Source of the DNA: a virus
Length of the DNA: 64,000 nt
Strand: one strand, 5' to 3'
Virus record (IMG/VR): IMGVR_UViG_3300021197_001521
Span: 1 to 64,000 of that record
The notes beneath the pieces were generated by a model that was not told where the DNA came from, made no database searches, and worked only from the letters and a program-made list of their open reading frames with translations. The translations under genes were made by a program, and so were the position numbers. Shown piece after piece: positions 1,852 through 62,652 of the stretch; the stretch's first letter is position 1; every line of letters begins with the position of its first letter.

Positions 1852-2850
1852 ATGACTTGTGACTCAAGAACACCGTCTCAACTGAACTCCGGTCAGTTAA
1901 TTGATAGTATAAAGTGCGATTTAGCAGACAATAACGCCGGTTTAATATCTGCCGCAGATGTTAGAGAAAATATGGAGGATATTGCATTTTCCATAAATAA
2001 AGTTGTTGCCAGCGGGGACACAGAGACTGCATTTCCTTTCTTTAATGCTGTAAAAGCAACGACAATATCAGGCGGGTCTGGAATGTTTATCCCAGAATCT
2101 GGTATTTCTTTCCCTAATTCTCCGGTTGAGTCTGAAAGAACTAAACTTCAGGTGAGACCTTGGTTGGGTCCAGAGGGAATAAACCATGACGAACTTTCTG
2201 GTAGAAGTTCTAGTGATAACGCACATACTCAATATCTTCCAAGAACTGGGTCTAAAAAGATGCAGGGCAATCTTGGAATGGATAATAACTGGATTAACTC
2301 TTCCGGCAGCGTTCTAGATGATGGTTCGCCCTATAGTTACTCAGATAGAGGGTTTAGATTTGTATCAAATTTAGATTCTGACACAAATTACCAGTATGAC
2401 GATGTTGAGATTGGAACTTCCGGCAGTTTGAAGTTCAACAAGGATCTTTCAAGTACTGATAGTTTTCATGGAGTTGCTAAAGCTTGGTTGAGATTTACAG
2501 CTTCTGCAACCCCAGAGGTTTTAAGTTATCATAATATTAGCGGTATAGAAAGAACAGCTCAGGGTAAATACACTATAACATTTACCAGCGGCACTTTTAT
2601 GAACAATAATTATGTTGCCGTAGCAAACTCAAACGCTAGAAGTTCTGCTTCTAACGGAGATGACTTTGACTTGAATACAGTTGGTTGTTTTTACAGAACT
2701 GGGGACGACGGAACGACCCTAAGAACAATTTCCTACCATATACAAAAAGACGACAATAGTTTTGTAGATGGATCGGTTTGTGATCTCGTATGCTATGGAT
2801 TTGAACCGGGATCTAGATCTGGCACTCCTCCAACTGTAACTGTCTCCTAA
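1852..2850 (+). CDS. Virion structural protein (collar/fibre-like), Ser-Gly rich
   Basis: C-terminal AKAWLRF...SYHNISGIERTAQGKYTITF domain of a type seen in phage fibre proteins; 11 SG dipeptides; GGAG RBS. Confidence 0.55.
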   Translation: MTCDSRTPSQLNSGQLIDSIKCDLADNNAGLISAADVRENMEDIAFSINKVVASGDTETAFPFFNAVKATTISGGSGMFIPESGISFPNSPVESERTKLQVRPWLGPEGINHDELSGRSSSDNAHTQYLPRTGSKKMQGNLGMDNNWINSSGSVLDDGSPYSYSDRGFRFVSNLDSDTNYQYDDVEIGTSGSLKFNKDLSSTDSFHGVAKAWLRFTASATPEVLSYHNISGIERTAQGKYTITFTSGTFMNNNYVAVANSNARSSASNGDDFDLNTVGCFYRTGDDGTTLRTISYHIQKDDNSFVDGSVCDLVCYGFEPGSRSGTPPTVTVS

Positions 2851-3800
2851 TGTCTATAATCATACTAAATGACAGAATAAAAGAAACCAGTAGGGATACT
2901 GGTACGGGGCATCTTACGTTAGATGGCGCTGCTCAAGGTTTTAGTAGTTTTGACAGCGCTTATTCATCTGGAGATATTCTTTATTACGCTATTTCAGACG
3001 GCACGAATTATGAAGTGGGGTCCGGTGTCTTTCATACCGATGGAGTATATGATCGACTAGAAAGGTCTGCTCACAAAAGCACAAACAGTAACAATAATGT
3101 TAATTTTTTAGCGGGTGTAAAAGAAGTATACGTCACTCATCCCGGAAAATTTTCCGTATTTACTGCAAGTGGGGTTCAAGACTTCAAAGAACCTAAGAGT
3201 AGCGGATTAGCGTTTTGGGAGTCTAGTCAGATACTGAATTACGACGAGAATATAATATGGAACTCAGATTCTAACCTTTTAGGAATAAGAAAAAGTTCTC
3301 CTACTTATGCTGTTGATATAGGTGGTCCTCAAGAGTATTCTCAAGTAAATACTTCTGGTTTAATAGTTGGTAATTCTGGGGTTATGTTTTCTGGAGAAAA
3401 TGTAGCAGTCAGAGGTAGACAAACAATCCCCTTTCAACAAAACGAATTCATAGACACGGAAACTACAAATATTGAAGAATGTCTTCAATTAAGCGGTGTT
3501 GTAAATGAGTACATAGGGTTTAAAAAGCAACCGCCCGCTAGAGTTTTTGCTGGACCTTCTGGAACCTGCGGTTGTACGGAAGACTATCCTTCATTTAGAC
3601 CCCTTAGATTTGATGACATACAAGGCGTAACTCAAATAATAAATAGTAGCGGAAATTTAGCGATACCTACATTCGCTAATCAAGCGGCAGTTATAAGTAA
3701 TATATCGGCGGATCAGGCAGGAGTATTAGCATTTAGCACTAGTGACAATTATTTGATGATAGCTAATGGCACAAGTTGGGTCAAAATTCAATTATCGTAA
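2850..3800 (+). CDS. Virion structural/fibre-like protein, Ser-Gly rich
   Basis: N-terminal DRIKET..TGTG.LTL.GA..GF motif common in phage structural proteins; LGI..SSPTYAVDI fibre-type repeat; C-terminal NGTSW; 10 SG dipeptides. Confidence 0.6.
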   Translation: MSIIILNDRIKETSRDTGTGHLTLDGAAQGFSSFDSAYSSGDILYYAISDGTNYEVGSGVFHTDGVYDRLERSAHKSTNSNNNVNFLAGVKEVYVTHPGKFSVFTASGVQDFKEPKSSGLAFWESSQILNYDENIIWNSDSNLLGIRKSSPTYAVDIGGPQEYSQVNTSGLIVGNSGVMFSGENVAVRGRQTIPFQQNEFIDTETTNIEECLQLSGVVNEYIGFKKQPPARVFAGPSGTCGCTEDYPSFRPLRFDDIQGVTQIINSSGNLAIPTFANQAAVISNISADQAGVLAFSTSDNYLMIANGTSWVKIQLS

Positions 3801-3815
3801 CAATCGGAGAGAAAA

Positions 3816-4025: not shown

Positions 4026-4035
4026 GACTAATTAG

Positions 4036-4509: not shown

Positions 4510-4510
4510 C

Positions 4511-6110: not shown

Positions 6111-6118
6111 CCATTTTT

Positions 6119-9574: not shown

Positions 9575-12500
9575 ATGGCTAGATTTTTACTAACCGCTCA
9601 GTTACAGCTTAGAGCTCCATCAAACACTCGACAAGTTGTCTCTCAAATGCAGAGGCAGCTCAGGGGTGTTAATGTAAATGTAAACGTAAGAACAGCAGCA
9701 GCATCTAGACAAGTTAACACTCTAAATTCTGCTACTCAGAAACTAAACAAAAGCGGTGCGAATATAGGGAAAACTTTTGCCGTATCTCTTAGGAGATTCG
9801 CGGCATTCTCTATTGCAACTAGAGCAGTTACTCTCTTCAGCAATAAACTATCTGCTGGCATAGAAGATGCTATACAGTTTGAAAGAGAGTTAGTCAAGAT
9901 TTCTCAGGTCACTGGGAAAACTATTACTCAGTTAAACGGTCTTTCTTCTACGATTACTAGACTTTCTACAAGTTTAGGTACTTCCAGTAAATCATTGCTT
10001 TCTACTGGTAGGATTCTTGCTCAAGCAGGTATTCAAGCAAAAGACCTAGATACTGCTTTGGATGCTCTTGCAAAAACAACTCTTGCTCCTACGTTTGATG
10101 ATATAACAAAAACGGCAGAGGGCGCAGTTGCTATTCTGGCACAGTTTGGAAAAGGTGTTGGCGCTCTTAAAGAGCAGTTAGGTGCTATCAATGCGGTTGC
10201 TGGTCAGTTTGCTGTGGAATCTGGTGACTTGATTTCTGCTGTTCGCCGTACTGGTGGTGTGTTTAAATCTGCGGGTGGTGAACTTAATGAACTCATAGGT
10301 TTGTTCACAAGTGTTCGTGCAACAACCCGTGAAAGTGCAGAAAGTATTGCAACTGGTCTTAGAACTATCTTTACACGTATTCAACGTCCTAAGACTATAG
10401 AATTTCTTAAACAGTTTGGTGTTGAACTTACAGATCTAAACGGTAAGTTTGTTGGACCTTTTGAAGCAGTTAAAAGACTGAGCGCTGCATTTAAAGGGTT
10501 AGAAGAAGGTGATATTACTTTTGTTAGAGTCGCGGAAGAACTTGGTGGTTTCCGTCAGATTGGTAAAGTTATACCACTTATTCAACAGTTTGAAGTTGCT
10601 GAACGAGCAAGGGCAGCAGCAGTAAAGGGTGCAAACTCTCTGGATAGAGATGCTGCTACCGCACAGCAAGCATTAGCAGTTCAGTTTGAGAAAACAAGAG
10701 AAAGATTTCTGGCATTGATTCGTGATATTGCTGGAAGTAATTCTATTCAAACTCTCGTTCGTAGCACTCTTAGTTTAGCAGAATCCCTTACTAAAGTCTT
10801 AGAAGCGCTTAAACCAATTATACCTTTGCTGGGTGCTATGGCCGGCGTAAAACTTGCCGGTGTACTGGGCGCTGGAGCAAGGGGTTTAGGTGGAGCGCTT
10901 GCTAGAAGAAATGCTGGCGGTCCTATAGGATTGAATCGCGGAGGTATGGTTCCCGGTACTGGGAATACAGATACAGTTCCGGCAATGCTTACTTCTGGTG
11001 AGTTTGTAATTCGCAAGAATAGTGTTAGAAAAATAGGCGCTGATAATCTTGCTCGAATGAATGCTACAGGTTTTGCTGCTGGAGGTCAAGTTGTAAGGGG
11101 TAGACATGGTTATGGTCCTCAATCTCCTACTTTAAGGGAAGCAGTAGCAGCACGAAAAAAACAAGCAGTGGCAGACCCAACTAAAACGATAACAGGGGGC
11201 AAAAAAGGCGTAGGAACGATGACGCCACTAACTTCCGCTCAGAGAAAAGCGGAATTAAAAGCAAGCAAGTTTGCAGATGAAGATATTTACGCTGCTGCAT
11301 TTTTAACGCCAGAGGGTAGAGATCAACAATATAAAGGGTTCATTAAAAAAGACAATCTACAGAAAGCGATTAGAGCATCCCTTCCCGCAGGAATGGTTAA
11401 TTTTACCAAATCGAAGAAAAAGGGGCAATTAACAGGGGCTAACTATCAAGCTGTTGCTGAAAAATATGCTAGAAGAAACACTTTTAGAATTGATGCTGGA
11501 TCACTTGAAAAGGTAGCTGCAAACAAACTAGAAGATACTCTTTTAGACGGAGTTGTTAGTACTACCAGAAAAGGCGCAAAACAAATAAATAATTCCTTGG
11601 GAATACAAGGTACTGAAAACATAGCAGATGCTTTAAAGAGCTCAAACATAGATCAGGTTATGGGAAACCTGTTTGAATTAGTTTTAACCAATGCTGGCGC
11701 ACCATTTGGCGTACCTGACACAGATCCTCCTAATGCTCCTTTTGATTTTCCTCAAGGTTTAGGTTCTTCTATAGCAAAACAGTTTGGGATAGGTTCAAAA
11801 TCTAAAACTGACGCAAAGTCTTTCTTTAGTACTCCAAACTTAGCGTCTATGAACAAAAAAGTTCAAAACGAACTTGCAAATGAAACTATAAAAGAATTAA
11901 CACCTATATTTAAAGAATTGCAGGTGTCAGAAAAAAGAGCAACCGCTACTCTAAACTCTGGTGGTCCTACTCCTAAGTCCGATGTTGTTCCTGCTATGCT
12001 AACTCCGGGTGAGTTTGTTATAAATAAAGGCGCTGCCAAGCAGATCGGCATGGGCAACCTAAATAGAATGAACAAACACGGGGTTGCTGGGTTTGCTGCT
12101 GGTGGAGTTGTTAGAAGTGGTAGAAATAATTATGGTTCCGACGCAGGCATGGGTATGCAAATCAGGACACCCGGAGGAGGATCTATTAGTGCTGGCGCAA
12201 GCAATGCTTCAATAAGTTCAGCGATGGGAACTAAAGATGCAACACAAGCGTCTACAAAAGCAATTAACGATCAGACTAAGGCAACCGAGAAATTAACGAA
12301 GGGTCATAACGATCAAGAGAAGAAGATAAAAAGTAACAATGCTGGCATGAAGACGATGGGACTTGTTATGGCAGCAAGTATGATTCCTCGTTTTGAAGAT
12401 GCTGACAGTGGAATAAAAGCTGCTGCAAACTCTATGCTTGATTTATCAATGCAAGTTGGTGTTGTTATGATGGCACTTGATGCCTTTGGGGTAAAGTTGA

Positions 12501-48102: not shown

Positions 48103-48103
48103 A

Positions 48104-49998: not shown

Positions 49999-50876
49999 AT
50001 CGCCTCCTTAGTTTTTCTTAAAACATCAAGTCTACTTGCGCCCGAAAACGCTTCTTCAAAAGTTATAAGATTTTCTACATTTATTTCTTCGTTGTGAAAT
50101 ATGTTCATGTAGGCAGAGTATCTATGAAGCGCCCAACCAGCATAGAATCTAGCAACATTTTCGTGTCCGTTTTCATGAAAATTCATACCTGACCCTACGC
50201 CAGCAAAATGTAGGAATTTTTTACCGAAGTCATACCAAGTGTTCAGCAGTAAAAATCCATTATCATAACTTTCATTTTCATTAGAGCTTCCATAATCTTC
50301 TGTGTCTAGATAAAATATTTTTCCGTTGTTCATAAGAATATGAAAACTTACTGGATCAAAAAAATCTATAATTGGGATTCTATCTACAGGTTGACCTTGG
50401 CACATATTCTTTAGTGTGTCAAAATTAATTTCATCAGAAATTAAAGATTTATTCACCCCAATGAAGCATGTTCCTACAACGTCTGGCATAGGTCTGTGTA
50501 TAGAATAACTTCTACGTGGACCAACTAGATCGTAACCATCTTCTAGTTTATTCGTTATATCACTGAGGCATTCATCAATAAAAACAACATCGCTGTCAAT
50601 TTGAACTATGTAGTCGTAACCTTCTGAATACTCTCTTATGACTTTTGCCCAAACATAAGCAGTTCCGCTATGACCAGACTTATAGAGATGTTTTATATTT
50701 TCATCAGTTTCAATATTAATAAATTTATTGTTCTCATTACTTGGAATATCCAAGAAGTCTTCAGGTGTACCTATAATGTGAATCTTAACATCGTGAAATT
50801 TATGATAAGTTTCTATGCACTTGTTTGCTATCTTACCACAATTATATGCTATTACGAATACAAAAGTATCATCCAT
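49995..50876 (-). CDS. GT-A fold glycosyltransferase-like protein
   Basis: YDYIVQIDSDVVF DxD motif; late HFAG motif. Confidence 0.6.
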   Translation of the reverse strand: MDDTFVFVIAYNCGKIANKCIETYHKFHDVKIHIIGTPEDFLDIPSNENNKFINIETDENIKHLYKSGHSGTAYVWAKVIREYSEGYDYIVQIDSDVVFIDECLSDITNKLEDGYDLVGPRRSYSIHRPMPDVVGTCFIGVNKSLISDEINFDTLKNMCQGQPVDRIPIIDFFDPVSFHILMNNGKIFYLDTEDYGSSNENESYDNGFLLLNTWYDFGKKFLHFAGVGSGMNFHENGHENVARFYAGWALHRYSAYMNIFHNEEINVENLITFEEAFSGASRLDVLRKTKEAI

Positions 50877-51681
50877 TTATAGCCCTTTCAATAGTTTCCT
50901 TTAGCATTGGTTTTATATCATAATATTTTTTTGATCTTTCGTAATTATCTTCTATGGCTGTAATCATTTTTGAGTACGAGGACTCATCTAGCGAGTTGCA
51001 TTTATTTACAATATCTTTCGCTGAGTTTACAATAATAAATCCGTCTGTATTAAAAAAATCAGAGATGTTACTAGCGCCATAGAAAATTGGAACCGTCTTT
51101 GTTACTAAGCAGTCAATTAATTTCTCTGTAAAAAAATTATTTTGTCTTGTGTTTTCTATGCAAACCGAAAATTGAGAATCGAATAATGGTTCTTTTTTCT
51201 CTCCTATTTCTGGGTTATTGAATGGATTATTTGTTGCTCGTCCTCTGTTGCTAATGTAAAATGATTTTGGTATAGTAATTTTGTCTTGATTAAAATTTAA
51301 CTCATGCCTCATAGCGTGACCCTCTAGCATCAACTTGAATCCTGTTAAGTGAGATACGCTAAAGTTTTTAGGAGGATGTTGATAGTCTTTAACCCACGAT
51401 GTACCAAATGGAAACAAGTGTGCATTTGGAAGTTTTAGAAGTTTCTCGTCATAAGTCAATATTGCGTCGAACATATTTGCTCTAGGTAAAACGAACTGCA
51501 CTATGTTTAATAGAACGGAAGGTTCTCTGGTTAGCAATATATTGGTACAGTCTTCTTCATTTTTATAACCATTAAGATCTTTATCAATAAAAAGCTTTAT
51601 GGGTTTGTCGTGTTCAATAAGTAGATTTGGCCATTCGGGGTACATGCTTGAATTGACTGTTTGTAGCATTTTATTCTCCAA
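50869..51681 (-). CDS. GT10-like (alpha-1,3/4-fucosyltransferase-like) glycosyltransferase
   Basis: REP...FDAILTY; FSVCIENT...FFTEKLIDCL...VPIFYG. Confidence 0.75.
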   Translation of the reverse strand: MENKMLQTVNSSMYPEWPNLLIEHDKPIKLFIDKDLNGYKNEEDCTNILLTREPSVLLNIVQFVLPRANMFDAILTYDEKLLKLPNAHLFPFGTSWVKDYQHPPKNFSVSHLTGFKLMLEGHAMRHELNFNQDKITIPKSFYISNRGRATNNPFNNPEIGEKKEPLFDSQFSVCIENTRQNNFFTEKLIDCLVTKTVPIFYGASNISDFFNTDGFIIVNSAKDIVNKCNSLDESSYSKMITAIEDNYERSKKYYDIKPMLKETIERAING

Positions 51682-52762
51682 GATAATTTCTCTTTGCTTT
51701 TAAAAATAATTTCTTTTCTATTTCAGACATGTAATTAAACGTATCTAACAGCGAGTGCATTTCCCACAGTTTGGGATTTTTGTGAATCATAACCTCATGA
51801 TGCAAGTGAAAAAGATCAACATCTATAGAGGGAAACTCCACAGGTTGAATTGCTTCAATTTTATCCCAAAAGAATTTATCTTCCGGTGAATAACCATAAA
51901 AGAATTCTGGATCATAACCACCAACTTCTATAAACAAGTCTTTACTAATAATAATAGAACCACCCGGAGCGCCAGTCTGAGGTATTTCTATACCATAAGA
52001 ATCTTGGTGGAGTTGATCGACATCTGATTTTTTTAGTTTTATAATAGCTTCTGTTAGTTCTTTTGATAAATTTAAAACCCTTCTATTTGAAAAAGTTTGC
52101 AATGCACCAACACTATACTCTTTCAGATTCAAGATAGTTTTTTCAAAGAAAGAGGTTTGAACTAAAATGTCTATGTCATGGAATAAATAATATTTAGCTT
52201 TGTTTGAATATTTGAACCCACAGTTATGAGCTAAAGATTTATTCATTAGTTTATTTTCAGACGGGATATGAATATAGTTTACTAGACCGCTTGCCTTTTC
52301 CTTGTGATTTGGTTTGTCGTTTTCTTCACACAGGGTGATGCAAATTTTTGCTCCAGAATTCTCTGCTGATTTTTTTAGATGTTCAATACACGGAATAACA
52401 AATTCATCTCTACCTCTAACTGGTAGTATCACGTTTATATCATATTCCTCTTGGTCTATCAAATCTATATAGCAGGTTTCTTTTATTTTTTCATAATCTA
52501 ACCTACCGCTAACATGTAACTGAGAAAATAACATTTTATTTGATGACCTTTGTAAATAATCTTCTTTGTTTTTTAATGATTTGATTGTTTTTGATATCGA
52601 GATTAACTTGGTATCGGAGTCAATTATATTTATTAATTCTCTATAGTATTTTTTTTCTGAATGACCTTTTGAGTTTCCTATTGCGTTTTGGCAGATTTCT
52701 TTTATTTGATTTCTGATTACAATGTCTTCTTTTTTATCACTTTCTTTAAAATATAAAAACAT
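51671..52762 (-). CDS. GT2/GT7-C-type glycosyltransferase
   Basis: ILPVRGR, NKSLAHNCG, FHDIDIL, VGGYDPEFFYGYSPED, HLHH. Confidence 0.8.
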   Translation of the reverse strand: MFLYFKESDKKEDIVIRNQIKEICQNAIGNSKGHSEKKYYRELINIIDSDTKLISISKTIKSLKNKEDYLQRSSNKMLFSQLHVSGRLDYEKIKETCYIDLIDQEEYDINVILPVRGRDEFVIPCIEHLKKSAENSGAKICITLCEENDKPNHKEKASGLVNYIHIPSENKLMNKSLAHNCGFKYSNKAKYYLFHDIDILVQTSFFEKTILNLKEYSVGALQTFSNRRVLNLSKELTEAIIKLKKSDVDQLHQDSYGIEIPQTGAPGGSIIISKDLFIEVGGYDPEFFYGYSPEDKFFWDKIEAIQPVEFPSIDVDLFHLHHEVMIHKNPKLWEMHSLLDTFNYMSEIEKKLFLKAKRNYLGE

Positions 52763-53526
52763 TAAAATTCCACCTCTTTAAAAGAAGGTCTGCTGCAACA
52801 TATTCTATGAACTTTTTCTTGTTCTGCCCCTTCAGTTCTGAACTCACAGGTTGGATTTAAATTGTTGTAAATATAAAGAACTTTATCGTTGTATTTGACT
52901 TTATCCCAACCAGCGATGTCCATAAGAGAAAATACCTGAGCGCAGTCGTAAGCCATTGTAAACCATCTTCCATCATCGTACTTCATTGAGCTTAGTTCTG
53001 GATCTTGGTTCTTAATTTCGTGGAATAGTTTTGCTTTAAAACTTCTAAGGTGAGATACCCACAATGGCATTTGTCTTTTCAGCTCAAAGTGGTACTTACT
53101 AGGAAACGGTTTAGCATTACCTTCTTTTCCGTCTACATATCTTGCTTGACCGTACATCATCAAGCAATTTTCTCTATTGTAAAAACTATTAATATATGAC
53201 AGAACAAATTCGTCTACAAACCAATCATCTCCATCTAGTTGAACAACGATGTCTTCTGGGTCACAATCTTCGTTGATAGCTTTTTGATGATTATAAGTGG
53301 CGTATTTTCGTTCATCTGTTTTAGTGTAAATAATTTTATCTGGATATTTTTCTATATACTCTTGGCAGATGTCATCTGAATCATCAGAAGAATCATCGTT
53401 TACTAATAACACTTTAAAATTTTTATGAGTTTGACCAAAAATGCTGTCTAAACTCTTTCGTAGATATTCTCCAGCATTTCTAAAACTTACTAATATCTTA
53501 AAATTATTTTCCATTAGATTCTCCAA
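52762..53526 (-). CDS. Glycosyltransferase family 2
   Basis: RNAGEYL, VNDDSSD, QLDGDDW, HLRSF, LYIYN. Confidence 0.88.
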   Translation of the reverse strand: MENLMENNFKILVSFRNAGEYLRKSLDSIFGQTHKNFKVLLVNDDSSDDSDDICQEYIEKYPDKIIYTKTDERKYATYNHQKAINEDCDPEDIVVQLDGDDWFVDEFVLSYINSFYNRENCLMMYGQARYVDGKEGNAKPFPSKYHFELKRQMPLWVSHLRSFKAKLFHEIKNQDPELSSMKYDDGRWFTMAYDCAQVFSLMDIAGWDKVKYNDKVLYIYNNLNPTCEFRTEGAEQEKVHRICCSRPSFKEVEF

Positions 53527-54391
53527 ATCTTTTTATTATGTCTTGCGCCTTGTCTTGATATCCCGCATCTATCATTAATTGACAAACTCTATGTATGCAT
53601 GTATGGTTAGACTCAATCTCTTGTTTAATTTTTTCAATAGAGACTTCTTGTTGATCCTCAGAGAATAGAGCTTTTAAAACTTTTATAAAGTCTTCATTTT
53701 GATCTTCGCGAGGTTTGACGGAAACTTTTTCGCATCTCAGCATACAGTCAAAGAAAATCTGAGAGCAAACAAATTGAATATCTCCGACTAGCGTAACTTC
53801 TCTGTAATTTCTCGCGAGAGATGCTAGATTGTTTATATTGCACTCTAGATCGAATTGGGAGTGTAAGTCTACACCAAAAATCATCCTATGATACTTCTCA
53901 TTATTACTGCATATCTTTTCAAATTCTTCGCTGGTTTCAGTTGAAATAATGCAATTATCTATTTTGTAGTCTAGCATGGGTGGTGGATTTAGAAATACAT
54001 CAATTCCGGGCATAATACAAGAGAATTTTATGTCCTTGCTCTTGTTGTTTACTAGAAAACCATATCCTTCTGAAAAGAACAGTGAGCAATTTACACCCAA
54101 CTCTTTGATCTGACCCTCCAAGTAGTCTATTATTGTTTGATTGCATCTGCTGCAATTAACTACTAGGTTTATGTTTTTATTCTCTGATAGATATTTTAAC
54201 AAAACAGGGTCTAGAATTTTAGCGTTTGCTATTACTAGGTCCGGTTTAAATCCGTCTAAACAGTCGTATACACTTTCTTGATTTACATTCCATAACTTTA
54301 CTTCTACGGAATCTACCATAGACAAGCACTGGTGAACGTAGAAGTTTTGGGTTGACAAAATATCGTTGTAGTTTTGTATAAGTACTCTCAT
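53504..54391 (-). CDS. Degenerate GT-B (CgeB-like) protein
   Basis: FKPDLVI near the N-terminus and NHTCIHRV near the C-terminus; no clear nucleotide-sugar-binding motif. Confidence 0.4.
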   Translation of the reverse strand: MRVLIQNYNDILSTQNFYVHQCLSMVDSVEVKLWNVNQESVYDCLDGFKPDLVIANAKILDPVLLKYLSENKNINLVVNCSRCNQTIIDYLEGQIKELGVNCSLFFSEGYGFLVNNKSKDIKFSCIMPGIDVFLNPPPMLDYKIDNCIISTETSEEFEKICSNNEKYHRMIFGVDLHSQFDLECNINNLASLARNYREVTLVGDIQFVCSQIFFDCMLRCEKVSVKPREDQNEDFIKVLKALFSEDQQEVSIEKIKQEIESNHTCIHRVCQLMIDAGYQDKAQDIIKRFGESNGK

Positions 54392-55131
54392 TTTTCTATC
54401 TCTTTCAGTGATTTTAAGTTATTTATTTTAAGTAGTGGTATTCCAGAATTTTTCATAACAGATATTTCTTTTGTTTTATTTAATTCATTTATTGCTTCAA
54501 ATAGAAATTTATTTTTAAAATCAGGATTCGATATGATGTCATAGAATTTTTCTATGGTTTCTCCACCTTTTAAAAACACCGATTCCGTCCAAAAATTATT
54601 TTTCTCTCCTAAACACAAAGATGTTAACTTTTGTTTTTCTGAAATACCTGAAACTTCAAAGTTCATTGTTGGATTCTTGTCCTGAACAACTATTGAAGAT
54701 TTGCTGTAGTCAACTGTAGATAAAAATTCAGGTGTTAGCAAAAGATTACCAGAAACAAACAGAATTCTATTATTCATAGTGTTTCCAACGCACAGTCTGG
54801 CGCTTTCGCAGCAGTTTGAATTAAAATGAACTTGATTTTCTATAACTCTAATGTTCTCATAATTAAGATTTTTTTTGACATACTCTGTTATTTTTTTAGA
54901 CTCAAAACCTGCACACACGATAATCTCATAATTAAGCAGTGTTGCCTGTATTGTTTCAATTTGCCTTTCAATTAAAGTTTTATCCTTAATTTTTATAAGA
55001 GGTATAGAACCATAAGATTTCATTCTATACCCGTGATTCTCAGACAAGATAACAACCGTTACGAAGTCTTTTAATCTTTTCTCCTCCCTATTCCAAGGTT
55101 TGGGAGATGCTATATGTCTTTTTTTTCTCAT
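54388..55131 (-). CDS. Sugar-phosphate nucleotidyltransferase-like protein with degenerate signature
   Basis: VILSENHGYRMKSYGSIPLIKI..KTLIERQI..EIIVCAGFE; the canonical LAAGxGxR/PK and GD motifs are altered. Confidence 0.65.
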   Translation of the reverse strand: MRKKRHIASPKPWNREEKRLKDFVTVVILSENHGYRMKSYGSIPLIKIKDKTLIERQIETIQATLLNYEIIVCAGFESKKITEYVKKNLNYENIRVIENQVHFNSNCCESARLCVGNTMNNRILFVSGNLLLTPEFLSTVDYSKSSIVVQDKNPTMNFEVSGISEKQKLTSLCLGEKNNFWTESVFLKGGETIEKFYDIISNPDFKNKFLFEAINELNKTKEISVMKNSGIPLLKINNLKSLKEIEK

Positions 55132-55132
55132 A

Positions 55133-55870
55133 TTATTTTACTTTAACGAAATAATAAAGATTGCGGTTTTTTGACTCAACGATTAACTGTTTTGTCATCT
55201 TGTCATAATCATTATACTCAGGATATGAACTATTTACAACTCTTTTCATTATTATAGAACCATTTTTTGGCAATTCAAAAATCGCAGCGTTCTTCATTTG
55301 ATTGTTTGTGAGGTCATCTATCATCAAAAAGACATCGGAAGGAATTTGTGCATCATGTTCTAGTTTTACAAAATAACTTGCTTTTATCAATTTTTTAAAT
55401 GCTTCAAACTCTTCTTCTTTCTTATCTTTTTTAAAATGAAAATCTACATAGCAATGCCGAAACTTTTGCTTGAGATCATATAGTGCTGAGACGATTTCTT
55501 CTGCTTTGCCTTGGTTTTTACTAGATATAACAATTTTTATTTTGTCTTTGGGATAATCTATTTCTTTTAATTTTTTAATTGTTTCTAGTATTTTGGTATC
55601 ATCATCTTCGGAATCAAATACAGCGATTCCAAAAAGAGGCATAACGTGATTTCTCGCAATATCCAAAGCGTCTTCTTCTTTAGAGAACTGCCAACTTTCT
55701 AATCTTTTTAGGTTACATATCCCATGAATTTTATGAGGATTGTCGGTTATAATTTTATCAGAAAACGCATCAAGTCTTCCTGCGCTGCATTTATTAGAAT
55801 TAGTGTAGAAAATACAATCTTTGCAAGAAGTAGTAGTGGCAGGTTTATTTTCTTCTTGCTGTGATTTCAT
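55133..55870 (-). CDS. Cys-motif N-terminus plus degenerate GT2-like domain
   Basis: CKDC..C..C at the N-terminus; ETIKKL..IDYPKDKIKIVIS; YFVKLEHD in place of DxD. Confidence 0.45.
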   Translation of the reverse strand: MKSQQEENKPATTTSCKDCIFYTNSNKCSAGRLDAFSDKIITDNPHKIHGICNLKRLESWQFSKEEDALDIARNHVMPLFGIAVFDSEDDDTKILETIKKLKEIDYPKDKIKIVISSKNQGKAEEIVSALYDLKQKFRHCYVDFHFKKDKKEEEFEAFKKLIKASYFVKLEHDAQIPSDVFLMIDDLTNNQMKNAAIFELPKNGSIIMKRVVNSSYPEYNDYDKMTKQLIVESKNRNLYYFVKVK

Positions 55871-56261
55871 AGTTAAGTCCAGACATGGTTGATCGTTCTA
55901 TTTGTAGTCCATTTTTTTGAAAGAATTGCTTGACTAAATCTACATCTAGCATACACTTGGACTGTAAAATTAAAGTATTCATTGTAGGTTGAGGTATCAA
56001 ACCATTAAGAACACCCTTACAAAAGAGTCTTGGGTCTATACCACTAACTGTGAGTGTTCCGTTTAGTCTAAGTTTATTAATTAGCAGTCCAAGAAAATCG
56101 AATACGTTTTCCTGACTAAAAAGACTTATTGTGTCTGACGCTAATATTTCTTCGCATTGATTATCTGTTACCTCTTCTGACAAAATATTTAGGTCGCTAA
56201 GGAGGAATGTTTCATAACCCTTTATGGCAGTCCTATCGTCAGTTACTATTTGTAGTTTCAT
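55845..56261 (-). CDS. Truncated/degenerate SAM-methyltransferase-like protein
   Basis: DNQCEEILASD...KLRLNGTLTV resembles class I MTase post-motif elements; no GxG motif I. Confidence 0.45.
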   Translation of the reverse strand: MKLQIVTDDRTAIKGYETFLLSDLNILSEEVTDNQCEEILASDTISLFSQENVFDFLGLLINKLRLNGTLTVSGIDPRLFCKGVLNGLIPQPTMNTLILQSKCMLDVDLVKQFFQKNGLQIERSTMSGLNYEITARRK

Positions 56262-57233
56262 TTATATCCCCTTGTAAGCTCTATCAAAAACGTTATTCCA
56301 TTTAGTTATAAATTCTTGCTCTGAGAATTTTTCTTCTATAGTTTTTCTTGCCTCCGCACCCATTTTAGCAGCAAGCGGTTTGTCTTCAAGTAATTGCTCG
56401 CAGTAAGATCTAAGATCTTCTTCGTCGTTAGAAATAAATCCATTAACGCCATGTTCGATAAAGTCAGGTATTGCACAAGTCTCTGTTGTGACAATAGCAC
56501 AACCGCAAGACATTGCTTCTAACATAGACGTAGGAACTGGACTCAAAACGCTTGGGTTTATATAAACTAGAGCATTTTGGTATGCTTTGATTAAATGTTC
56601 CACAGATTCACTTTGACTAGAAAGACCTTCTGTTTCCCCTACAACTACCCTGTCTAAACCTTTTGTAATTCTTTCCCAACCTTGATAGTTCAGCGCATAG
56701 TCTCTTTTTATGAAATCATGAGCAACCGTCAGGATCTTACTCCTATCTGCACCATCGTCCGGTTTAAAGATGTTGGTATCTACGGAATGCTCAATTACAT
56801 CGCCGTCCATACCCCATTTTCCTTTAGAGTAATTTGTTATAAAAATATTATAATCACCCCTCATTGATAGAAACTGATTTAGGGTTTCTTGAGGCCACTG
56901 TGGTATAGGAAGCGTATGCTCCAAGGATATCAAAGGTATCTGTAATGTGTCATTTATTTTTTGTGCAACTTGATATTGACCGAATTTACTATGCGAAAGT
57001 ATCATGTCAAAGACTATATTTGGAACATTATTTTTACCTAGTTGGTAGCAGTTTTCCGGCATTTTTCCATGACCTTCATACCAATCTTTTCCTTCTTCAT
57101 GGTTAAATGAATAGAAGTTATGACCCGTTTTTGCCAGTTGAGTTTGGTATCTTTCATGGGCATTGAAGGTTAGTATGTTGTACTTTGTTTTATTTCTGTT
57201 TGCTTTGTCTATAATGCTGATTTGCCTACGCAT
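56262..57233 (-). CDS. Glycosyltransferase family 4
   Basis: VYINPS..SPVPTSMLEAMSCGCAIVTT, HGVNGF, MG.EAR..I..KFS. Confidence 0.9.
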   Translation of the reverse strand: MRRQISIIDKANRNKTKYNILTFNAHERYQTQLAKTGHNFYSFNHEEGKDWYEGHGKMPENCYQLGKNNVPNIVFDMILSHSKFGQYQVAQKINDTLQIPLISLEHTLPIPQWPQETLNQFLSMRGDYNIFITNYSKGKWGMDGDVIEHSVDTNIFKPDDGADRSKILTVAHDFIKRDYALNYQGWERITKGLDRVVVGETEGLSSQSESVEHLIKAYQNALVYINPSVLSPVPTSMLEAMSCGCAIVTTETCAIPDFIEHGVNGFISNDEEDLRSYCEQLLEDKPLAAKMGAEARKTIEEKFSEQEFITKWNNVFDRAYKGI

Positions 57234-58317
57234 TTAACACCTCCTTTACAGTGTTTCCAAAGGACTCTTGAGAAAATTTTTCTGCTTTTTCTAGTCCCTG
57301 TTTTCTTCTTTCAATATGAATCATAGGATCTTTCAACCAGTCGTCATACAATTGTCTCATCGTTTGTCTCATTCCCATCTCGCAAGGATTGAAAACGAAA
57401 TTCTTTGCGTTATATACGTCTTTCCACATTGAGTCTGATCTTTCTATTGTCTTGTATACAGATTTGACTACCGCCTCATCTGCATACTCTGCCGCATCTG
57501 TTCCTTCTAGCACTACAGGAACGCTTCCTAAGCACAATGCGTCGAATACACTTGAAGGGAGGCATCTTTGATTAGAAGGCGTTACGAAGCAATCTCCGTA
57601 TTGATGAAGTTGATAAATTGATTCAGGGTTTTGACCTCTTTGTACAACCATGTCTAGCAAGCAATCGCTTAGGTCTTCTTGATTACTAATTTTTTTCTTC
57701 AGTTCATGTTTTTTTATGTCTAATGATTGCTGCGTTTCCCCGCCTACTAACTGTAGTATTAGTGCAGTGTTATCGCCCTTGTCGAATTCTGAATGAAAAC
57801 ATCTGAGAATAGTTTCTGTTTGATCGTCATAGGCATCTACCACGGTATAAAACTTAAATTTACCCGTAAGCTCTGGCACTTGAATTTCTTTATAATTTTT
57901 TGTATAAAGACTTTTATCAAAGCAGTGCGGCACTACAACAGTTTTATCTTTTATTTTTTTAGGCATCGAATCTTTCGCTATTTCGCTGGCAACCCAAATC
58001 TGATCTAATTGATTTAGTTGTTCTGCCCAACTAGAATGATCTAATGTTACAAATTCATTTCCAAATATTGCAATATTTTTTTCAAATTTATCTGTTCCTA
58101 CTAGATGTTCTGGAAACACATGTTGAATACAGACATCACAATCGTCCAAGGATTTATCTTCTAGGTGACTTATTTCTTTGGGTGTCTGATTGCCAGAAAA
58201 CGAAATTGCCCTACATACAACATCAAAACCTGCTTTATCAAGCGCTAAAATATTATTGGTGGCATATCTACCCCAATCGCTCGCTTCTCTGTAATATCCA
58301 ATATACAATACCTTCAT
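57226..58317 (-). CDS. Glycosyltransferase family 4-like
   Basis: MKVLYIG, DQIWVAS, VVPH.FD, GDCFVTPS...FDALCLG (the ExFG/E motif is degenerate). Confidence 0.7.
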   Translation of the reverse strand: MKVLYIGYYREASDWGRYATNNILALDKAGFDVVCRAISFSGNQTPKEISHLEDKSLDDCDVCIQHVFPEHLVGTDKFEKNIAIFGNEFVTLDHSSWAEQLNQLDQIWVASEIAKDSMPKKIKDKTVVVPHCFDKSLYTKNYKEIQVPELTGKFKFYTVVDAYDDQTETILRCFHSEFDKGDNTALILQLVGGETQQSLDIKKHELKKKISNQEDLSDCLLDMVVQRGQNPESIYQLHQYGDCFVTPSNQRCLPSSVFDALCLGSVPVVLEGTDAAEYADEAVVKSVYKTIERSDSMWKDVYNAKNFVFNPCEMGMRQTMRQLYDDWLKDPMIHIERRKQGLEKAEKFSQESFGNTVKEVLNA

Positions 58318-58331
58318 TAGGCTCTCCCGAC

Positions 58332-59207
58332 TTATAAATGAATAATTTTATTTGTGTCAAAAAAATGGTTCAATACATCTGGTTTTTTCTGGTTTAAAAT
58401 CCAGTCAATATCTTCTCTGTCTATCTCTTCTTTTCTATTGTCTCTTGAGTAAGTGTTTACGGAATTATTTTTCATTCTATAAGATAGAATTGTTTCTCCA
58501 TTGTATAAACAGGTCGCAGGACATCCAATCCAAGTTTCGTGATTATTTACAATAAAAAAGTTAGCAGAACATTTTAAATGAGTAGAAACCCCACCAGCGT
58601 TTCCTAAACAAACAACACAGTTTGAAAGCATAAAATACGAAAGCATTTCACTGTATGTGGTAGTCGATACTTCTTCGTAATTATCACTAAAACTAAGGTT
58701 GGGTTTTTCTATCGTCAAATTAATAACATATGCATCGTTCTGTAAAATTTTTGCTATATAATCTTCAAGCAAATTATTTCTAAATCCCGTTATAGGATTG
58801 TTGATATTTCTAGCGCTTATAACTACTATAGGTTTATCTATTTTTTCTAGTTTGTTCTTTATTAAAGTATAGTCGTGTTCTAAAGGTTTATTTGTTCCAA
58901 ACCCCTTCTCTTGAATCGTTTTATTTATATATGTAAAATTTCTTTTGTAAACATGTGTCTTGTCTTCATCAAAGTCTGCTCTATATGTAACGTTATTATT
59001 ATCATACCAACTTCGTAAATGATTACAAGATGAATTGTTCTTGCCGTCTATTAAGATTTTATCAAACGACTCAAATAAAACTAAAAAGTTATATCCTGCA
59101 TAAGTATAATACTCTTCGTCTATTTTTCTGTTGTGTGATAAAAAATTATTGCTTATGTCGCAGTAATTAAACTCGTCATATGAATACGGAAGCGAAATCT
59201 TATTCAT
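58332..59207 (-). CDS. Hypothetical GT-B-like protein
   Basis: VVISAR...RN and SNCVVCLGNAGGVSTH resemble GT9-like C-domains; very AT-rich. Confidence 0.4.
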   Translation of the reverse strand: MNKISLPYSYDEFNYCDISNNFLSHNRKIDEEYYTYAGYNFLVLFESFDKILIDGKNNSSCNHLRSWYDNNNVTYRADFDEDKTHVYKRNFTYINKTIQEKGFGTNKPLEHDYTLIKNKLEKIDKPIVVISARNINNPITGFRNNLLEDYIAKILQNDAYVINLTIEKPNLSFSDNYEEVSTTTYSEMLSYFMLSNCVVCLGNAGGVSTHLKCSANFFIVNNHETWIGCPATCLYNGETILSYRMKNNSVNTYSRDNRKEEIDREDIDWILNQKKPDVLNHFFDTNKIIHL

Positions 59208-59967
59208 TTTTTAATGGATAGTTTAAAATAAAACTCATCCCCCCTGAATTAAACTCTCCATGAAAACCGAAAGACTCATAACTTATTAGCATGTTTCTTG
59301 CAAAATATCTATACGGCGTTGGGTGTTCTACAGAAAACTGTGCTGCTAACTCAGGCGGGGCAAATCTTATACCTGCTTGTGTCATTCTGTCATAGTTAAA
59401 TACGCATATGTTTAAGTCTTCATTCTTATGTTCCCACCCAAGTTTGGCAGACTCTTCTACAAATTTTCTAGTTCGCAAAGAGAATCCACCATTACCCACA
59501 ACATTTGGAATATTATCTATTCTTCCAGCAACCATGTCCGTTGCTTGGATTATATGCATGGGCCAAGGCGCGCCTATGTAGTCGTAGTCTAAATACTGGT
59601 CTGTCCACTTATTACTATCTATAATAGTAGAATCATGCTGAACATTCAAGCAAAAATCATCTGTAATGTATTTATTTGTTTGTTGAACAAAAGATTCACA
59701 GAAACCTATTCTGTTTTCATCATCGTTTTGTAGGTTGTCATTAAGGTCTACTTTCATGTCGTAGACTTCTATGTTATTCTTGTTGATGATTTTTTCAAAC
59801 AAAGACAACTGAGTTTTACTACTATCTGTAATTAAGACACTACGCTTAAAATCTACCTGATCCATAGCAATCAACATAGATCTAAGAGATTTTTCTACAT
59901 GTTCTGTACCCCAGCAAAATGTAAATACTGTTACGTCTGGTAGTTGTAACTTATTTCCAATAGTCAT
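59200..59967 (-). CDS. DUF5672 family protein (predicted glycosyltransferase fold)
   Basis: LNVQHDS, YDYIGAPW, VGNGGFSLRTRK, NED, A.QFSVE, FGFHG. Confidence 0.85.
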   Translation of the reverse strand: MTIGNKLQLPDVTVFTFCWGTEHVEKSLRSMLIAMDQVDFKRSVLITDSSKTQLSLFEKIINKNNIEVYDMKVDLNDNLQNDDENRIGFCESFVQQTNKYITDDFCLNVQHDSTIIDSNKWTDQYLDYDYIGAPWPMHIIQATDMVAGRIDNIPNVVGNGGFSLRTRKFVEESAKLGWEHKNEDLNICVFNYDRMTQAGIRFAPPELAAQFSVEHPTPYRYFARNMLISYESFGFHGEFNSGGMSFILNYPLKNE

Positions 59968-60970
59968 AAATACCCTTCGTTGTTTCGTAATCCATTACCT
60001 TTTGTTCGCGTTTAGGTTGGGTCATCGCCCACCTGAACATCTCATCAATTGTTTCCTCTAGGTTGGTGTCGTCGCTAAAGCCTAACATTTCTTTTGCTTT
60101 TGCGTGATCGCAATGCGCATGTTTAACTTCGTGCCGACCTTCTACATGTTTTTTATCTGCTTGAAAACCATTTTTTAAAGCTACACGCTGCACTGTATCT
60201 GCCAGTTGGTTTATTGAGTATGCTTTGTCTGCTCCAATGTTAAAAATTTCTTTATCGTGACTATCAATCAGTTTTTCAAAAGGTTCCATGTAGTATTTGA
60301 TATCAGAGAACGCGCGAGTCTGCTCTCCGTCTCCGTAGATTAACATAGGTTCGCCAGCAAGTATACGTCTAATAAAAATACCTACAACGTTACGATATTT
60401 ATCCCAAATGTTTTGGTATATACCTACGACATTGTGTGGACGAACAATATTATAACGAAGACCGTGTTGATCGTGTGCAACCTTTAGGTCCATCTCTACG
60501 GTATATTTTGCAATACCATATGGATCAATTGGCACTGGTCCCATCGTTTCTGTAAATGGAGGATGATGATTACCGTAAACTGCCATAGAACTGGTAAAGA
60601 TCATTTTTACGTCATGATTGATACACGCATTGATTAGGTTAACACTTGCTAAAACATTATTTGTATAATTATAATGTCTGATAAATGGCGACAACCCTTC
60701 TGCTGCATAAGCAGCAAAATGATAACACGCTACAATGTCACGGTTAGGGTCAGCAAAAATATGCTCTAATGCCCTTGGAGTCCCTTCGCTTTTACTGAGG
60801 TGTAGCGGCCAAAACTCAAACTGCTCTAACGTGGTTTCTTTGGGAAGATAATCTTCATAACTGCCGCTAAGATCATCAATACCTATAACCTTGTAACCCT
60901 TTTTGATTAGGTGACGAGTTAGGTGCGAACCAAGCAGTCCTGCGCATCCAGTTATCACAACTTCTTTCAT
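59951..60970 (-). CDS. NAD-dependent nucleotide-sugar epimerase/dehydratase (extended SDR)
   Basis: TGCAGLLG, IDDLSG, TSSMAVYG, PYGIAK (YxxxK), RPHNVVG, YGDGEQTRAF. Confidence 0.92.
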   Translation of the reverse strand: MKEVVITGCAGLLGSHLTRHLIKKGYKVIGIDDLSGSYEDYLPKETTLEQFEFWPLHLSKSEGTPRALEHIFADPNRDIVACYHFAAYAAEGLSPFIRHYNYTNNVLASVNLINACINHDVKMIFTSSMAVYGNHHPPFTETMGPVPIDPYGIAKYTVEMDLKVAHDQHGLRYNIVRPHNVVGIYQNIWDKYRNVVGIFIRRILAGEPMLIYGDGEQTRAFSDIKYYMEPFEKLIDSHDKEIFNIGADKAYSINQLADTVQRVALKNGFQADKKHVEGRHEVKHAHCDHAKAKEMLGFSDDTNLEETIDEMFRWAMTQPKREQKVMDYETTKGIYDYWK

Positions 60971-62652
60971 TTAGACATCCCCTGCACCTGTTGCATTCTT
61001 TGTATTCTAGCTCTTTCCCATTGATTTCTTCTTTCGCATAGCATCTTCATCTGATCGTATGCTACATCAAAATTAAAAGGTTGCCTAGAATGAACGCCAT
61101 CAAATGCAGCAGAAGATTCGTTAAAGTACATACCGCCCGTTGAGGACGTTGCTTGTTTGTAGGTCAAGTCCCTTGTTAACCTAGACTCCATAAAAGTGCC
61201 TAGTTTATCAGGTTCTCTTAAAACATTTGTTATCAACCATCTTGACAGGTCGCTAGGTTTAATGTTATTGTTAGAAACATCCAACTTTTGATCTGATTCA
61301 ATTACCCTTGGACCTGACCCCCAACTTTGTTCAAGTGGAATTGGATCTGTTTGATCAAAGTAGTTCTCCCATACAGAACCACTTAAATGCCACTGATAAT
61401 ATTTTTCAAAGTTTTCTCTGGTTTGCTTGCCTTCTGCTTCTCTTTCTTCGTCTGATTTGCTGAAAAAATCCAAGAAATAGTTAGCAGCTTCTTGATTGTC
61501 TGGAACCGCACGTAAACATCCAGTTTCTAATTCTTTGTACAAAGCCGCTGGCTTAATGGGGTATCCGCCTAACTTCCTTAAAACACTTTCCATAGCAGAA
61601 TAATCTGTTCCGCAGACGGGAACCCCACAAGCCGCAGCTTCTACTTGAGGTAGTCCAAACCCTTCACAGTTTGCATACTGGGCGTACAGGTCAAACAAGT
61701 TCACCACGTTAGACAAATCTTCGTAACTTAGTCCATTTTTAACATTTGAAAGAGTTGCTCCCCACCTTCCTGTGTACGGAGATTGACATATCGCCCCTTT
61801 GAATGTAGAGGGAAATGGTTTTTTTGTTTCTGGACATATGTAAGTAAATAAAACGTTTGAAGACAGTTTATATTCTTGTATTAGTTCTGGAATCTCCCAA
61901 CCTAAATCTGGATAGGAGGTATGGCAGTACAGATAATACTTTTTGTTTTCTGACATATCCAAGAATTTACGGAAAGCTTCAAACAAATCTGGATACAACT
62001 TGCGTCTTTGGTTACGCATTACTGTTCCAATAATTTTGTACTCTGGATCTAAACCAAAGTTGAGTTTGTGCATACGCTTGTCTTCTACTGGACTGTAGGC
62101 AGGGTGCGCAGACGGAGGCGCGCTTCCAAGGTAATTTATTTTACCTCCAGATTGATTTTCTAATACGCCGCCCGCCCAGTCTGAATAAGTAAGACAGGCA
62201 TCTGCTCCTGCGTAAGTAGCAATCCACTGTCTTGCTTGAGGTCTTGCGTCTACCGTTGGCATTACCACCCATTTAAAAAACGGTCTAAACGGAGATCTTT
62301 CTGCAAAGTCTAGCATCCAGAAATCTCGAATGTCACACACAAAGTCTGGCAAAAAATCTAAGCAGACATGCTCAAACGCCCATTCTCCAAACTGATTTGT
62401 GGGTCTAGAGTTGTATGCTTCCAGTTCTTCTGGGGATGCTTTTGGTTCACAGTTTTGGTTAGGCATTACTCCGTAAAACTTCCAAGGAATGTTCGCTGCC
62501 CTTGGATCATTCTTTTCTCCGTATGCTGCCATCTCAGCAATTTCATACTTGCCAGTGCTGTGCAAATAGTTTAAAATCTCTCTAGTATAAGTTGCATACC
62601 CTGTGTTTAGAAAGGTAGCTTCACTGCAAAACAGAATTCTTTTCTTTCTCAT
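60967..62652 (-). CDS. Glycosyltransferase family 4, large
   Basis: TGYATY, RNQRRK, LYCHT, EGFGLPQVEAAACGVP. Confidence 0.9.
   Translation of the reverse strand: MRKKRILFCSEATFLNTGYATYTREILNYLHSTGKYEIAEMAAYGEKNDPRAANIPWKFYGVMPNQNCEPKASPEELEAYNSRPTNQFGEWAFEHVCLDFLPDFVCDIRDFWMLDFAERSPFRPFFKWVVMPTVDARPQARQWIATYAGADACLTYSDWAGGVLENQSGGKINYLGSAPPSAHPAYSPVEDKRMHKLNFGLDPEYKIIGTVMRNQRRKLYPDLFEAFRKFLDMSENKKYYLYCHTSYPDLGWEIPELIQEYKLSSNVLFTYICPETKKPFPSTFKGAICQSPYTGRWGATLSNVKNGLSYEDLSNVVNLFDLYAQYANCEGFGLPQVEAAACGVPVCGTDYSAMESVLRKLGGYPIKPAALYKELETGCLRAVPDNQEAANYFLDFFSKSDEEREAEGKQTRENFEKYYQWHLSGSVWENYFDQTDPIPLEQSWGSGPRVIESDQKLDVSNNNIKPSDLSRWLITNVLREPDKLGTFMESRLTRDLTYKQATSSTGGMYFNESSAAFDGVHSRQPFNFDVAYDQMKMLCERRNQWERARIQRMQQVQGMSK

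Follow-up and report, generated by a model that had tools for sequence, protein, structure and literature searches.

Among the closest described systems, the bacterial autotransporter heptosyltransferases (BAHT) TibC and Aah modify large, beta-rich adhesins (TibA, AIDA-I, Ag43) at many serines located at short turns between beta-strands; the enzyme is soluble and cytoplasmic, acts before the adhesin exits and uses no lipid carrier or flippase. TibC modifies Ser, not Thr, in TibA, including Ser-313 in the sequence N-S-G-G (PMC4358343), and thus provides a precedent for a cytoplasmic, Ser-specific protein glycosyltransferase acting at a Ser-Gly turn. Here we describe a window of viral DNA that covers 64 kb from the start of a virus record of 84,235 bp (IMG/VR record IMGVR_UViG_3300021197_001521, ca. 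51% complete; hereafter G000), in which the dipeptide Ser-Gly (SG) occurs in excess in a subset of the virion proteins, among them a giant tail protein of 5387 aa, and which also encodes a core of putative glycan enzymes that is conserved in its relatives. This locus may be comparable to the BAHT systems: SG is enriched and TG is not, and in an AlphaFold2 (AF2) model the SG sites are found at strand ends and hairpins, a placement that would suit acceptors of the BAHT type. It differs in that the BAHT enzymes are GT9-like heptosyltransferases, whereas the candidates encoded here are glycosyltransferases (GTs) of the GT4 type, and in that the substrates would be phage tail proteins instead of autotransporters. 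Membership of the GT9/BAHT group itself was rejected, PF01075 being present in none of five records (G000 and four complete relatives).

In chloroviruses, the capsid protein is glycosylated by cytoplasmic enzymes that the virus itself encodes, and a GT4 of chlorovirus PBCV NY-2A (3oy2) is the top fold match of p561, the GT4-type enzyme of the conserved core whose gene is a hallmark of the lineage (Foldseek E 3e-16, TM 0.75 on the target), at a sequence identity of 14% and with a small margin over the bacterial GT4 enzymes that follow (MshA, BshA, PimB, WaaG). Virion glycosylation is also reported for mycobacteriophages (Freeman et al., 2023, as cited in PMC12619734), where glycosyltransferases encoded by the phage are proposed or shown to act on its structural proteins and the glycans are located at the C-termini of the subunits of capsid and tail tube. 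In G000, a GT4 core and other GTs adjoin the tail module, but the sites considered here are ca. 30-100 internal Ser-Gly turns per protein in fiber and tail-tip proteins, as opposed to the C-terminal sites on capsid and tail tube of the mycobacteriophages.

Eukaryotic proteoglycan xylosylation shares the minimal Ser-Gly dipeptide, and the contig also has a sulfotransferase-like gene elsewhere. An earlier, sequence-only reading of this DNA had invoked this analogy, but it fails the tests applied: GT14 xylosyltransferases (PF02485) are absent from the same five records, and xylosylation sites are typically acid-flanked whereas Asp and Glu are depleted around 4,075 SG sites of this lineage. Moreover, GalE rather than UDP-xylose synthase is the nearest match of the conserved epimerase. 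Phage O-antigen or lipopolysaccharide clusters (Wzx/Wzy or Gtr) comprise a membrane flippase, polymerase or initiating transferase, or GtrA/B, none of which was detected by hydropathy in G000 and the two complete relatives used for synteny (G002 and G022). In T4-like phages with glycosylated hydroxymethyl-pyrimidine DNA, a ThyA-family hydroxymethylase accompanies the GTs; here such a gene (PF00303) is not conserved, being found in one of four complete relatives and not in G000.

Ser-Gly excess in a subset of virion proteins

The giant tail protein (15550-31713) contains 99 SG and 40 GS dipeptides, where 41.4 are expected for either, and its SG count stands out from shuffled sequences with z = 9.9. 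When all 400 dipeptides of this protein are ranked, SG is by far the most deviant, the runner-up having z = 4. An excess is also found in three smaller proteins (Table 1): p332 (332 aa) has 11 SG versus 4.1 expected (shuffle z 3.9), p316 (316 aa) has 10 SG and 1 GS (shuffle z 3.9), and p155 has 5 SG, all within residues 1-70. The hand counts of the sequence-only reading (99, 11, 10 and, in the first 70 aa of p155, 5) were reproduced exactly, and its claim that the enrichment is directional holds, since GS in the giant protein is at expectation. Equally, as it had stated, there is no enrichment in the chaperones (0 SG in two chaperone-like open reading frames, ORFs) or in the 1652-aa and 1460-aa tail proteins. 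The non-structural proteins of the contig have a baseline SG observed/expected ratio (O/E) of ca. 1.25. Within the giant protein, residues 1501-5387 account for the whole excess (85 SG versus 30 expected), and residues 1-1500 show none (14 versus 11.2).

Amino acid composition does not explain these numbers, as the SG excess survives comparison with the shuffled controls (z of ca. 10 in the giant protein). TG is not enriched (O/E 0.81; NG 0.73, DG 0.87) and the preference is, therefore, Ser-specific. The serines of its SG pairs are encoded by TCT, AGC and AGT alike, and a BLAST search of the giant protein found no internal repeats, which rules out such repeats as the cause; with three Ser codons contributing and no repeats, the signal must lie at the protein level.

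The excess recurs throughout the relatives of the giant protein. All 28 homologs from the protein database (94-37% identity) have an SG O/E of 1.9-3.0, with GS at ca. 1. In IMG/VR, the median SG O/E of the giant proteins at 75 loci is 2.48, with GS at ca. 1.1 and the adjoining tape measure proteins at ca. 1.0, and among 51 relatives, down to 27% identity, the excess persists with a pooled SG O/E of 2.39. Lower SG densities (1.4-1.8) arose on several branches of the tree. In the pooled relatives it is again the conserved core that is rich in SG (O/E 2.48), the variable N-terminal parts having 120 SG versus 109 expected (O/E 1.10). The N-terminal 900-1,780 residues form a variable cassette (here an RCC1-like propeller and a LamG-like lectin) that is absent or different in most relatives, whose giant proteins begin near the conserved core. 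The FG-GAP repeats of the giant protein recur to its C-terminus.

An alignment of 51 non-redundant giant proteins contains 32 columns with SG in at least 70% of the sequences, compared with 0-5 columns each for GS, DG, NG, GG, AG or TG at the same threshold. SG is the best conserved dipeptide of these proteins (0.56 versus a mean of 0.225), and the conservation of Ser preceding Gly (0.62) is on a par with that of Cys and Pro, versus 0.36 for the remaining Ser. Both AGY and TCN codons occur at 19 of the 32 conserved columns, so Ser has been held there through multi-nucleotide changes; together with the contribution of three Ser codons this rules out an artefact of DNA words or codon usage. Where Gly is retained and Ser is replaced (n = 149), the substitutes are Thr (38), Asn (26), Val (13), Asp (11), Glu (11) and Ala (7), whereas Ala is the commonest substitute (27%) at control Ser columns. 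These comparisons show that selection acts on the serine itself at fixed SG positions. Our data thus support an SG excess that is real and directional, that is limited to some of the virion proteins and that is maintained by selection.

Unrelated SG-rich families and control proteins

The SG-rich families have no BLAST-detectable homology to one another. Pooled, 27 orthologs of p332 have an SG O/E of 2.70 and a GS O/E of 1.08, and at five columns SG is retained by 70% or more of them, whereas no column reaches this level for GS, DG, NG or TG; a search for related loci with p332 as the lone query gave no match. The protein p316 matches the N-termini of tail-spike-like proteins of 1503-1660 aa in G002 (90353-94864) and G022 (149229-154211), which match phrog_4636 (tail spike) and contain 56 SG versus 23 expected and 59 versus 27, respectively. 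As p316 covers only the N-terminal ca. 360 residues of these spike-like proteins, the distal part of the spike is either missing from this phage or encoded elsewhere. At the position of p155, the ORFs of 60+ loci together contain 290 SG versus 112 expected, and 100 GS, and share the motif ..SG-V-L-P-SG-E-(S/A)-N-F-F-D in a Pro-rich N-terminus. This shows that at least four mutually unrelated families, i.e., the giant core, p332, p316 with the 1500-aa spikes, and the p155-like proteins, keep SG at fixed positions.

Other tail proteins of the same phages lack the excess. The tape measure protein, which served as an internal negative control, has 20 SG versus 16.5 expected, with a pooled O/E of 1.12 for 52 orthologs; p595 has a pooled SG O/E of 1.28 and GS O/E of 1.16 (71 orthologs), and the hub-like p1652 a pooled SG O/E of 0.86 (64 orthologs). 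There is also no clear SG excess in gp34-37 of phage T4 (O/E 0.27-1.70; gp34 p = 0.057). A general property of tail fibers is, therefore, ruled out. Tail-tube and capsid candidates have little or no SG excess; the capsid-sized ORF of G002 contains 1 SG versus 1.9 expected, and the capsid genes lie off this contig. The protein p1460 is enriched in Asp-Gly instead (23 DG versus 11.6 expected), perhaps because it has repeats that bind calcium or form a different sort of turn.

A conserved core and a contig-specific island of glycan enzymes

A cluster of ca. 17 cytoplasmic glycan enzymes had been proposed for this window from the sequence. The cluster is real, with family-level evidence for at least 14 ORFs on the minus strand (46478-62652), but the large cluster as a whole is not correlated with SG. 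Synteny with G002 and G022 splits it into a lineage-wide core and a contig-specific island. Of the core proteins, p561 occurs in all of 31 records with identities of 56-80% (73-75% to G002 and G022), is far better conserved than the giant protein and has >3,600 metagenomic homologs. Its AF2 model (pLDDT 83) has a two-Rossmann GT-B fold, matched by many GT4 structures at TM 0.70-0.75; by the PF00534 domain of both proteins, and for p561 also by this fold, p561 and p323 are retaining GT-B glycosyltransferases of the CAZy GT4 type. Some p561 homologs are ca. 930 aa long and carry an intein with LAGLIDADG domains (PF14890, PF14528; P0136), and the p561 match at G008:C1:51374-54103 is split around an insertion; such an intein suggests that the phage cannot do without this glycosyltransferase gene.

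The window copy of p363 has no Pfam, NCBIfam or PDB match; its orthologs (370-390 aa, located between those of p561 and p323) match PF00534 (Glycos_transf_1) in many records. The GT4 enzyme p323 is full length in most records; in one clade (G027, G029, G038, G042, G043) it is present only as an ORF of 151-178 aa that corresponds to the N-terminal Rossmann half. The best NCBIfam match of p339 is TIGR01179 (galE), below the cut-off, and the 247-aa core ORF is sugar-1-phosphate nucleotidyltransferase-like, with weak NCBIfam matches (5e-8). The island sits inside an otherwise syntenic, conserved module and adjoins the conserved Fcl-like gene (p312); apart from the latter, its ORFs have no homolog in G002 and G022, which are complete. 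By its gene content, the island resembles a branch for a deoxyhexose of the fucose or colitose type.

In a hydropathy scan, no ORF of the contig except the tape measure protein had two or more hydrophobic segments, and G000, G002 and G022 contained no protein with more than six, the glycan module included. Polytopic membrane proteins of the Wzx, Wzy or WbaP type are thus absent from the contig and the two complete relatives, although host enzymes could still serve. This confirms, and extends to these relatives, the previously noted absence of a flippase, polymerase and initiating transferase.

All 10 records that are at least 90% complete carry both the GT4 core and the SG-rich proteins. As no relative lacks the core, this universal co-occurrence is uninformative. 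The association of SG with the GT genes, which had been put forward as a check on the sequence-only reading, thus stands insofar as every sufficiently complete relative has the soluble core, but not for the island: relatives without the 46.5-53.5 kb island keep an equal or higher SG excess, so that only the smaller conserved core could be responsible. The window contig is, despite its large island, at the family-median SG density. A dependence of SG density on the size of the GT repertoire was rejected, since relatives with zero to two GT2 genes and no island have an equal or higher excess.

Structural context of the SG sites

An AF2 model of residues 2560-3720 of the giant protein has a mean pLDDT of 62 (80-94 in its confident parts); residues 2768-3050, which contain SGxxNL-type repeats and are the richest in SG, have a pLDDT <35 and may need the trimer. 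In the confident parts, 11 of the 13 assessable SG sites lie at most two residues from a secondary-structure boundary, in hairpins (2749 and 3331), at helix C-caps (3519 and 3712) and at strand starts or ends. The confident part (positions 26000-26700 of the window, residues ca. 3220-3720) resembles the beta-propeller of an integrin alpha subunit into which an alpha/beta domain is inserted, matching the alphaL, alphaM and alphaX headpieces at a Foldseek E of 1e-6. In the flanks of the 4,075 SG sites, Pro or Ala is favored at -1 and Val, Ile or Cys at +2. Such a placement would be compatible with a structural turn as well as with a strand-loop-strand acceptor like that of TibC, and the two roles are not mutually exclusive.

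Genomic setting

The tail module occupies 1-44 kb on the plus strand and the glycan-enzyme operon 44-62.7 kb on the minus strand (Table 1). The replication arm encodes SSB, a split DnaE, primase, DnaB, a RecA-like protein, a deoxynucleoside monophosphate (dNMP) kinase and PhoH. An exonuclease gene (RNase T-like) sits between the DnaE halves (genome 63035-66921 and 71071-73574 region, at or beyond the end of the window), and the arm also holds two tandem DUF1501 genes, a PAP2 phosphatase, a sulfotransferase-like gene and a GT8-like gene. Complete relatives measure 161-173 kb and have direct terminal repeats, the genomes of this uncultured lineage being ca. 160-175 kb in general. Searches of the window DNA, the giant-protein core and p561 against the deposited phage genome collection gave no match. 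Contigs of the lineage that bear p561 (L127-L130) have been binned in metagenome-assembled genomes labeled Verrucomicrobiales, Flavobacteriales and SAR202; these are probably mis-binned viral contigs, and binning yields no consistent host.

Table 1. Features of the window discussed in the text, with positions in the 64-kb stretch.
Feature	Position	Strand	Evidence
p332, SG-rich, tail-fiber-like	1852..2850	+	residues 204-268 match phrog_11355 (tail fiber)
p316, SG-rich, short form of spike N-terminus	2850..3800	+	42-44% identity to G002/G022 proteins
Tape measure protein, internal negative control	9575..15550	+	PF10145 at 1e-23
Giant tail protein, variable N-terminal extension	15550..20049	+	RCC1-like and LamG-like; Pfam PF25390, PF13540, PF13385
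Giant tail protein, conserved core of ca. 3,900 aa	20050..31713	+	FG-GAP, integrin-alpha-like propeller modules, fiber-like SGxxNL repeats
p595, conserved tail protein without SG excess	31713..33500	+	5 SG versus 3.5 expected
p155, small, with SG-rich and Pro-rich N-terminus	33508..33975	+	shuffle z = 5.6; syntenic ORFs in 60+ loci
p1652, hub-like tail-tip protein, negative control	33979..38937	+	6 SG, 7 GS
p1460, tail protein, negative control	38939..43321	+	9 SG, 9 GS
Contig-specific island: GT2, DegT-family, GT11, weak GT2, GT10, GT2_2, GT2	46478..53526 (and ORF 58332)	-	Pfam
p312, Fcl-like synthase, conserved in relatives (counted in core)	47164..48102	-	NCBIfam GDP-L-fucose synthase, below cut-off
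Four further conserved core ORFs (138, 245, 247, 295 aa)	53504..56261	-	orthologs in G002/G022
p323, GT4 glycosyltransferase, core	56262..57233	-	PF00534 8e-16; 64% identity in G002/G022
p363, conserved core protein	57226..58317	-	orthologs in G002/G022, 36% identity
p255, DUF5672, core	59200..59967	-	PF18922 1e-16; 77% identity in G002/G022
p339, GalE-like NAD-dependent sugar-nucleotide epimerase/dehydratase, core	59951..60970	-	PF01370 8e-40; 73% identity in G002/G022
p561, GT4-type retaining GT-B with helical C-terminal extension, lineage hallmark	60967..62652	-	PF00534

Discussion

The same Ser-specific, directional preference occurs in unrelated proteins of one virion and is absent from their neighbors and from the T4 fibers. 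This makes a factor that acts in trans and recognizes the Ser-Gly turn the most probable shared cause, and the best candidate for this reader is the conserved core, i.e., p561, p363, p323, the GalE-like epimerase, the nucleotidyltransferase-like protein, the Fcl-like enzyme and the DUF5672 protein. From sequence and by analogy, we tentatively favor the serine of the SG turns as a candidate sugar-attachment site for this cytoplasmic GT core. The soluble core enzymes would produce activated sugars, and the serine in exposed strand-SG-strand turns would be O-glycosylated on folded or folding fiber proteins in the cytoplasm, before virion assembly, in the way that TibC and Aah act on TibA and AIDA-I. 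Strain-specific elaboration of this glycan would then fall to the island at 46.5-53.5 kb (GT2, GT10, GT11, DegT-family).

Several observations weigh against glycosylation of the SG serines. The fold of p561 is that of a generic GT4. The SG flanks are hydrophobic (45% at +2) and depleted in Lys, Arg, Asp and Glu (the acidic residues across -3 to +4), and look like a semi-buried type-I-turn/G1-bulge context, not like an exposed loop. Of the 149 replacements of Ser before a retained Gly, 37 are by Asn or Asp, i.e., by residues that suit a turn but offer no acceptor for O-glycosylation. Mapping the SG sites on the predicted structure, which had been suggested in order to tell exposed loops from buried sites, places them at turns and caps, where they are positionally conserved and have the look of a structural motif. 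Per protein, ca. 34 SG sites are family-wide, ca. 29 are clade-level and ca. 17 are private; the private sites are not enriched (O/E 0.62) and most of the excess lies at ancient, conserved sites. The variable N-terminal modules of the giant protein, presumably its most distal part, have no excess in any relative. A dense glycan coat on exposed virion proteins, as envisaged by the sequence-only reading, also does not fit the lack of an excess in the adhesin-like N-terminal 900-1780 residues, the hub-like, 1460-aa and 595-aa proteins and the tape measure protein. Furthermore, G022 reaches an SG O/E of 2.62 with no GT2 at all, and a link between SG density and an intact p323 was rejected, as locus L061 has the full-length gene and an O/E of 1.64, and L070 the half gene and an O/E of 2.40.

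In type-I turns with a G1 bulge and in Schellman C-caps, a left-handed Gly is preceded by a small polar residue, Asp and Asn being the usual partners. The SG sites resemble these motifs in having Pro or Ala one position earlier and in lying at strand or helix ends, and SG could be purely structural, being the means by which this lineage prefers to form type-I-turn/G1-bulge hairpins, strand ends and helix C-caps. The Ser hydroxyl would hydrogen-bond the backbone in the beta-rich fiber and propeller domains, and the GT module would have another target. Given how the sites are built, that Asn and Asp can take the place of Ser, and that the accessory modules are free of excess, we consider this explanation a serious one, almost as likely as the glycosylation that we favor. 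It accounts for the proximity of 11 of 13 sites to secondary-structure boundaries, for their positional conservation, for the replacement of Ser by Thr, Asn and Asp rather than by Ala, as expected of an ST/Asx-turn, for the preference for Pro or Ala at -1 and Val or Ile at +2 with few charged residues, for the restriction of the excess to the conserved core to the exclusion of accessory modules, and for the unenriched private sites. However, it leaves unexplained why unrelated families converge on SG while the tape measure, hub, p595, p1460 and T4 fiber proteins have no excess, and why Ser is used in place of the usual Asn or Asp (NG 0.73, DG 0.87); unlike in ordinary G1-bulge and C-cap motifs, Ser is here almost the sole partner of Gly, and this holds for just some of the virion proteins. 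It also does not explain the conserved packing of SG into the disordered-looking, Pro-rich N-terminus of p155.

Less likely, and in our view improbable, is that the GT module acts on the phage DNA, on a lipid-linked glycan of the host (with the initiating enzyme and flippase of the host) or on a small molecule, and that SG is read by another factor such as a fiber chaperone, a kinase or another modifying enzyme. The module does separate the replication genes (SSB, split DnaE) from the tail module and is encoded on the same strand as the former; the dNMP kinase, PAP2 phosphatase, sulfotransferase-like gene and two DUF1501 genes point to envelope or nucleotide chemistry; and GT4 enzymes with p561-like folds (MshA, BshA, PimB, WaaG) mostly act on lipids, small molecules and polysaccharides. 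However, with a ThyA-like hydroxymethylase candidate in only one of the four complete relatives, glycosylation of hydroxymethylated DNA bases is rejected as a conserved role, and a flippase, polymerase or initiating transferase encoded by the phage is lacking in the contig and two complete relatives. Were the role at the host surface, one would expect differences from host to host, but p561 keeps 56-80% identity throughout the lineage, and no kinase or alternative SG reader was identified.

That SG replaces the deamidation- and isomerization-prone NG and DG, prolonging the extracellular life of the virion, is very improbable and fails as the main cause: NG is indeed depleted in all structural proteins (O/E 0.74-0.80, versus 1.12-1.20 in the non-structural proteins of the contig and G002), but its deficit of ca. 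8 pairs in the SG-rich set is far too small for an SG surplus of ca. 75 and is shared with structural proteins without SG excess, and DG is undepleted in the other structural proteins and enriched in p1460. The NG depletion itself may represent selection against deamidation hot spots in an extracellular particle.

If the excess is only structural, it is still a clean case of lineage-specific, Ser-specific selection on turns in unrelated proteins, which needs an explanation of its own. Returning to glycosylation, these sequences may, as a possible though still doubtful scenario, represent an abundant lineage of large marine and aquatic tailed phages with sequon-like O-glycosylation by GT4 enzymes, affecting at least four unrelated proteins at tens of sites each, with islands that diversify the sugar. 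If true, a protein glycosylation code with a minimal motif would for the first time be known from a phage virion, and such a two-residue code would let modified proteins be predicted from their sequence. Virion glycosylation would then be no mycobacteriophage curiosity but would rank among the core traits of an ocean phage lineage that is very common, as the >3,600 metagenomic homologs of p561 alone indicate, and would bear on host recognition, on the stability of virions in seawater and on the entry of phages into the marine carbohydrate pool.

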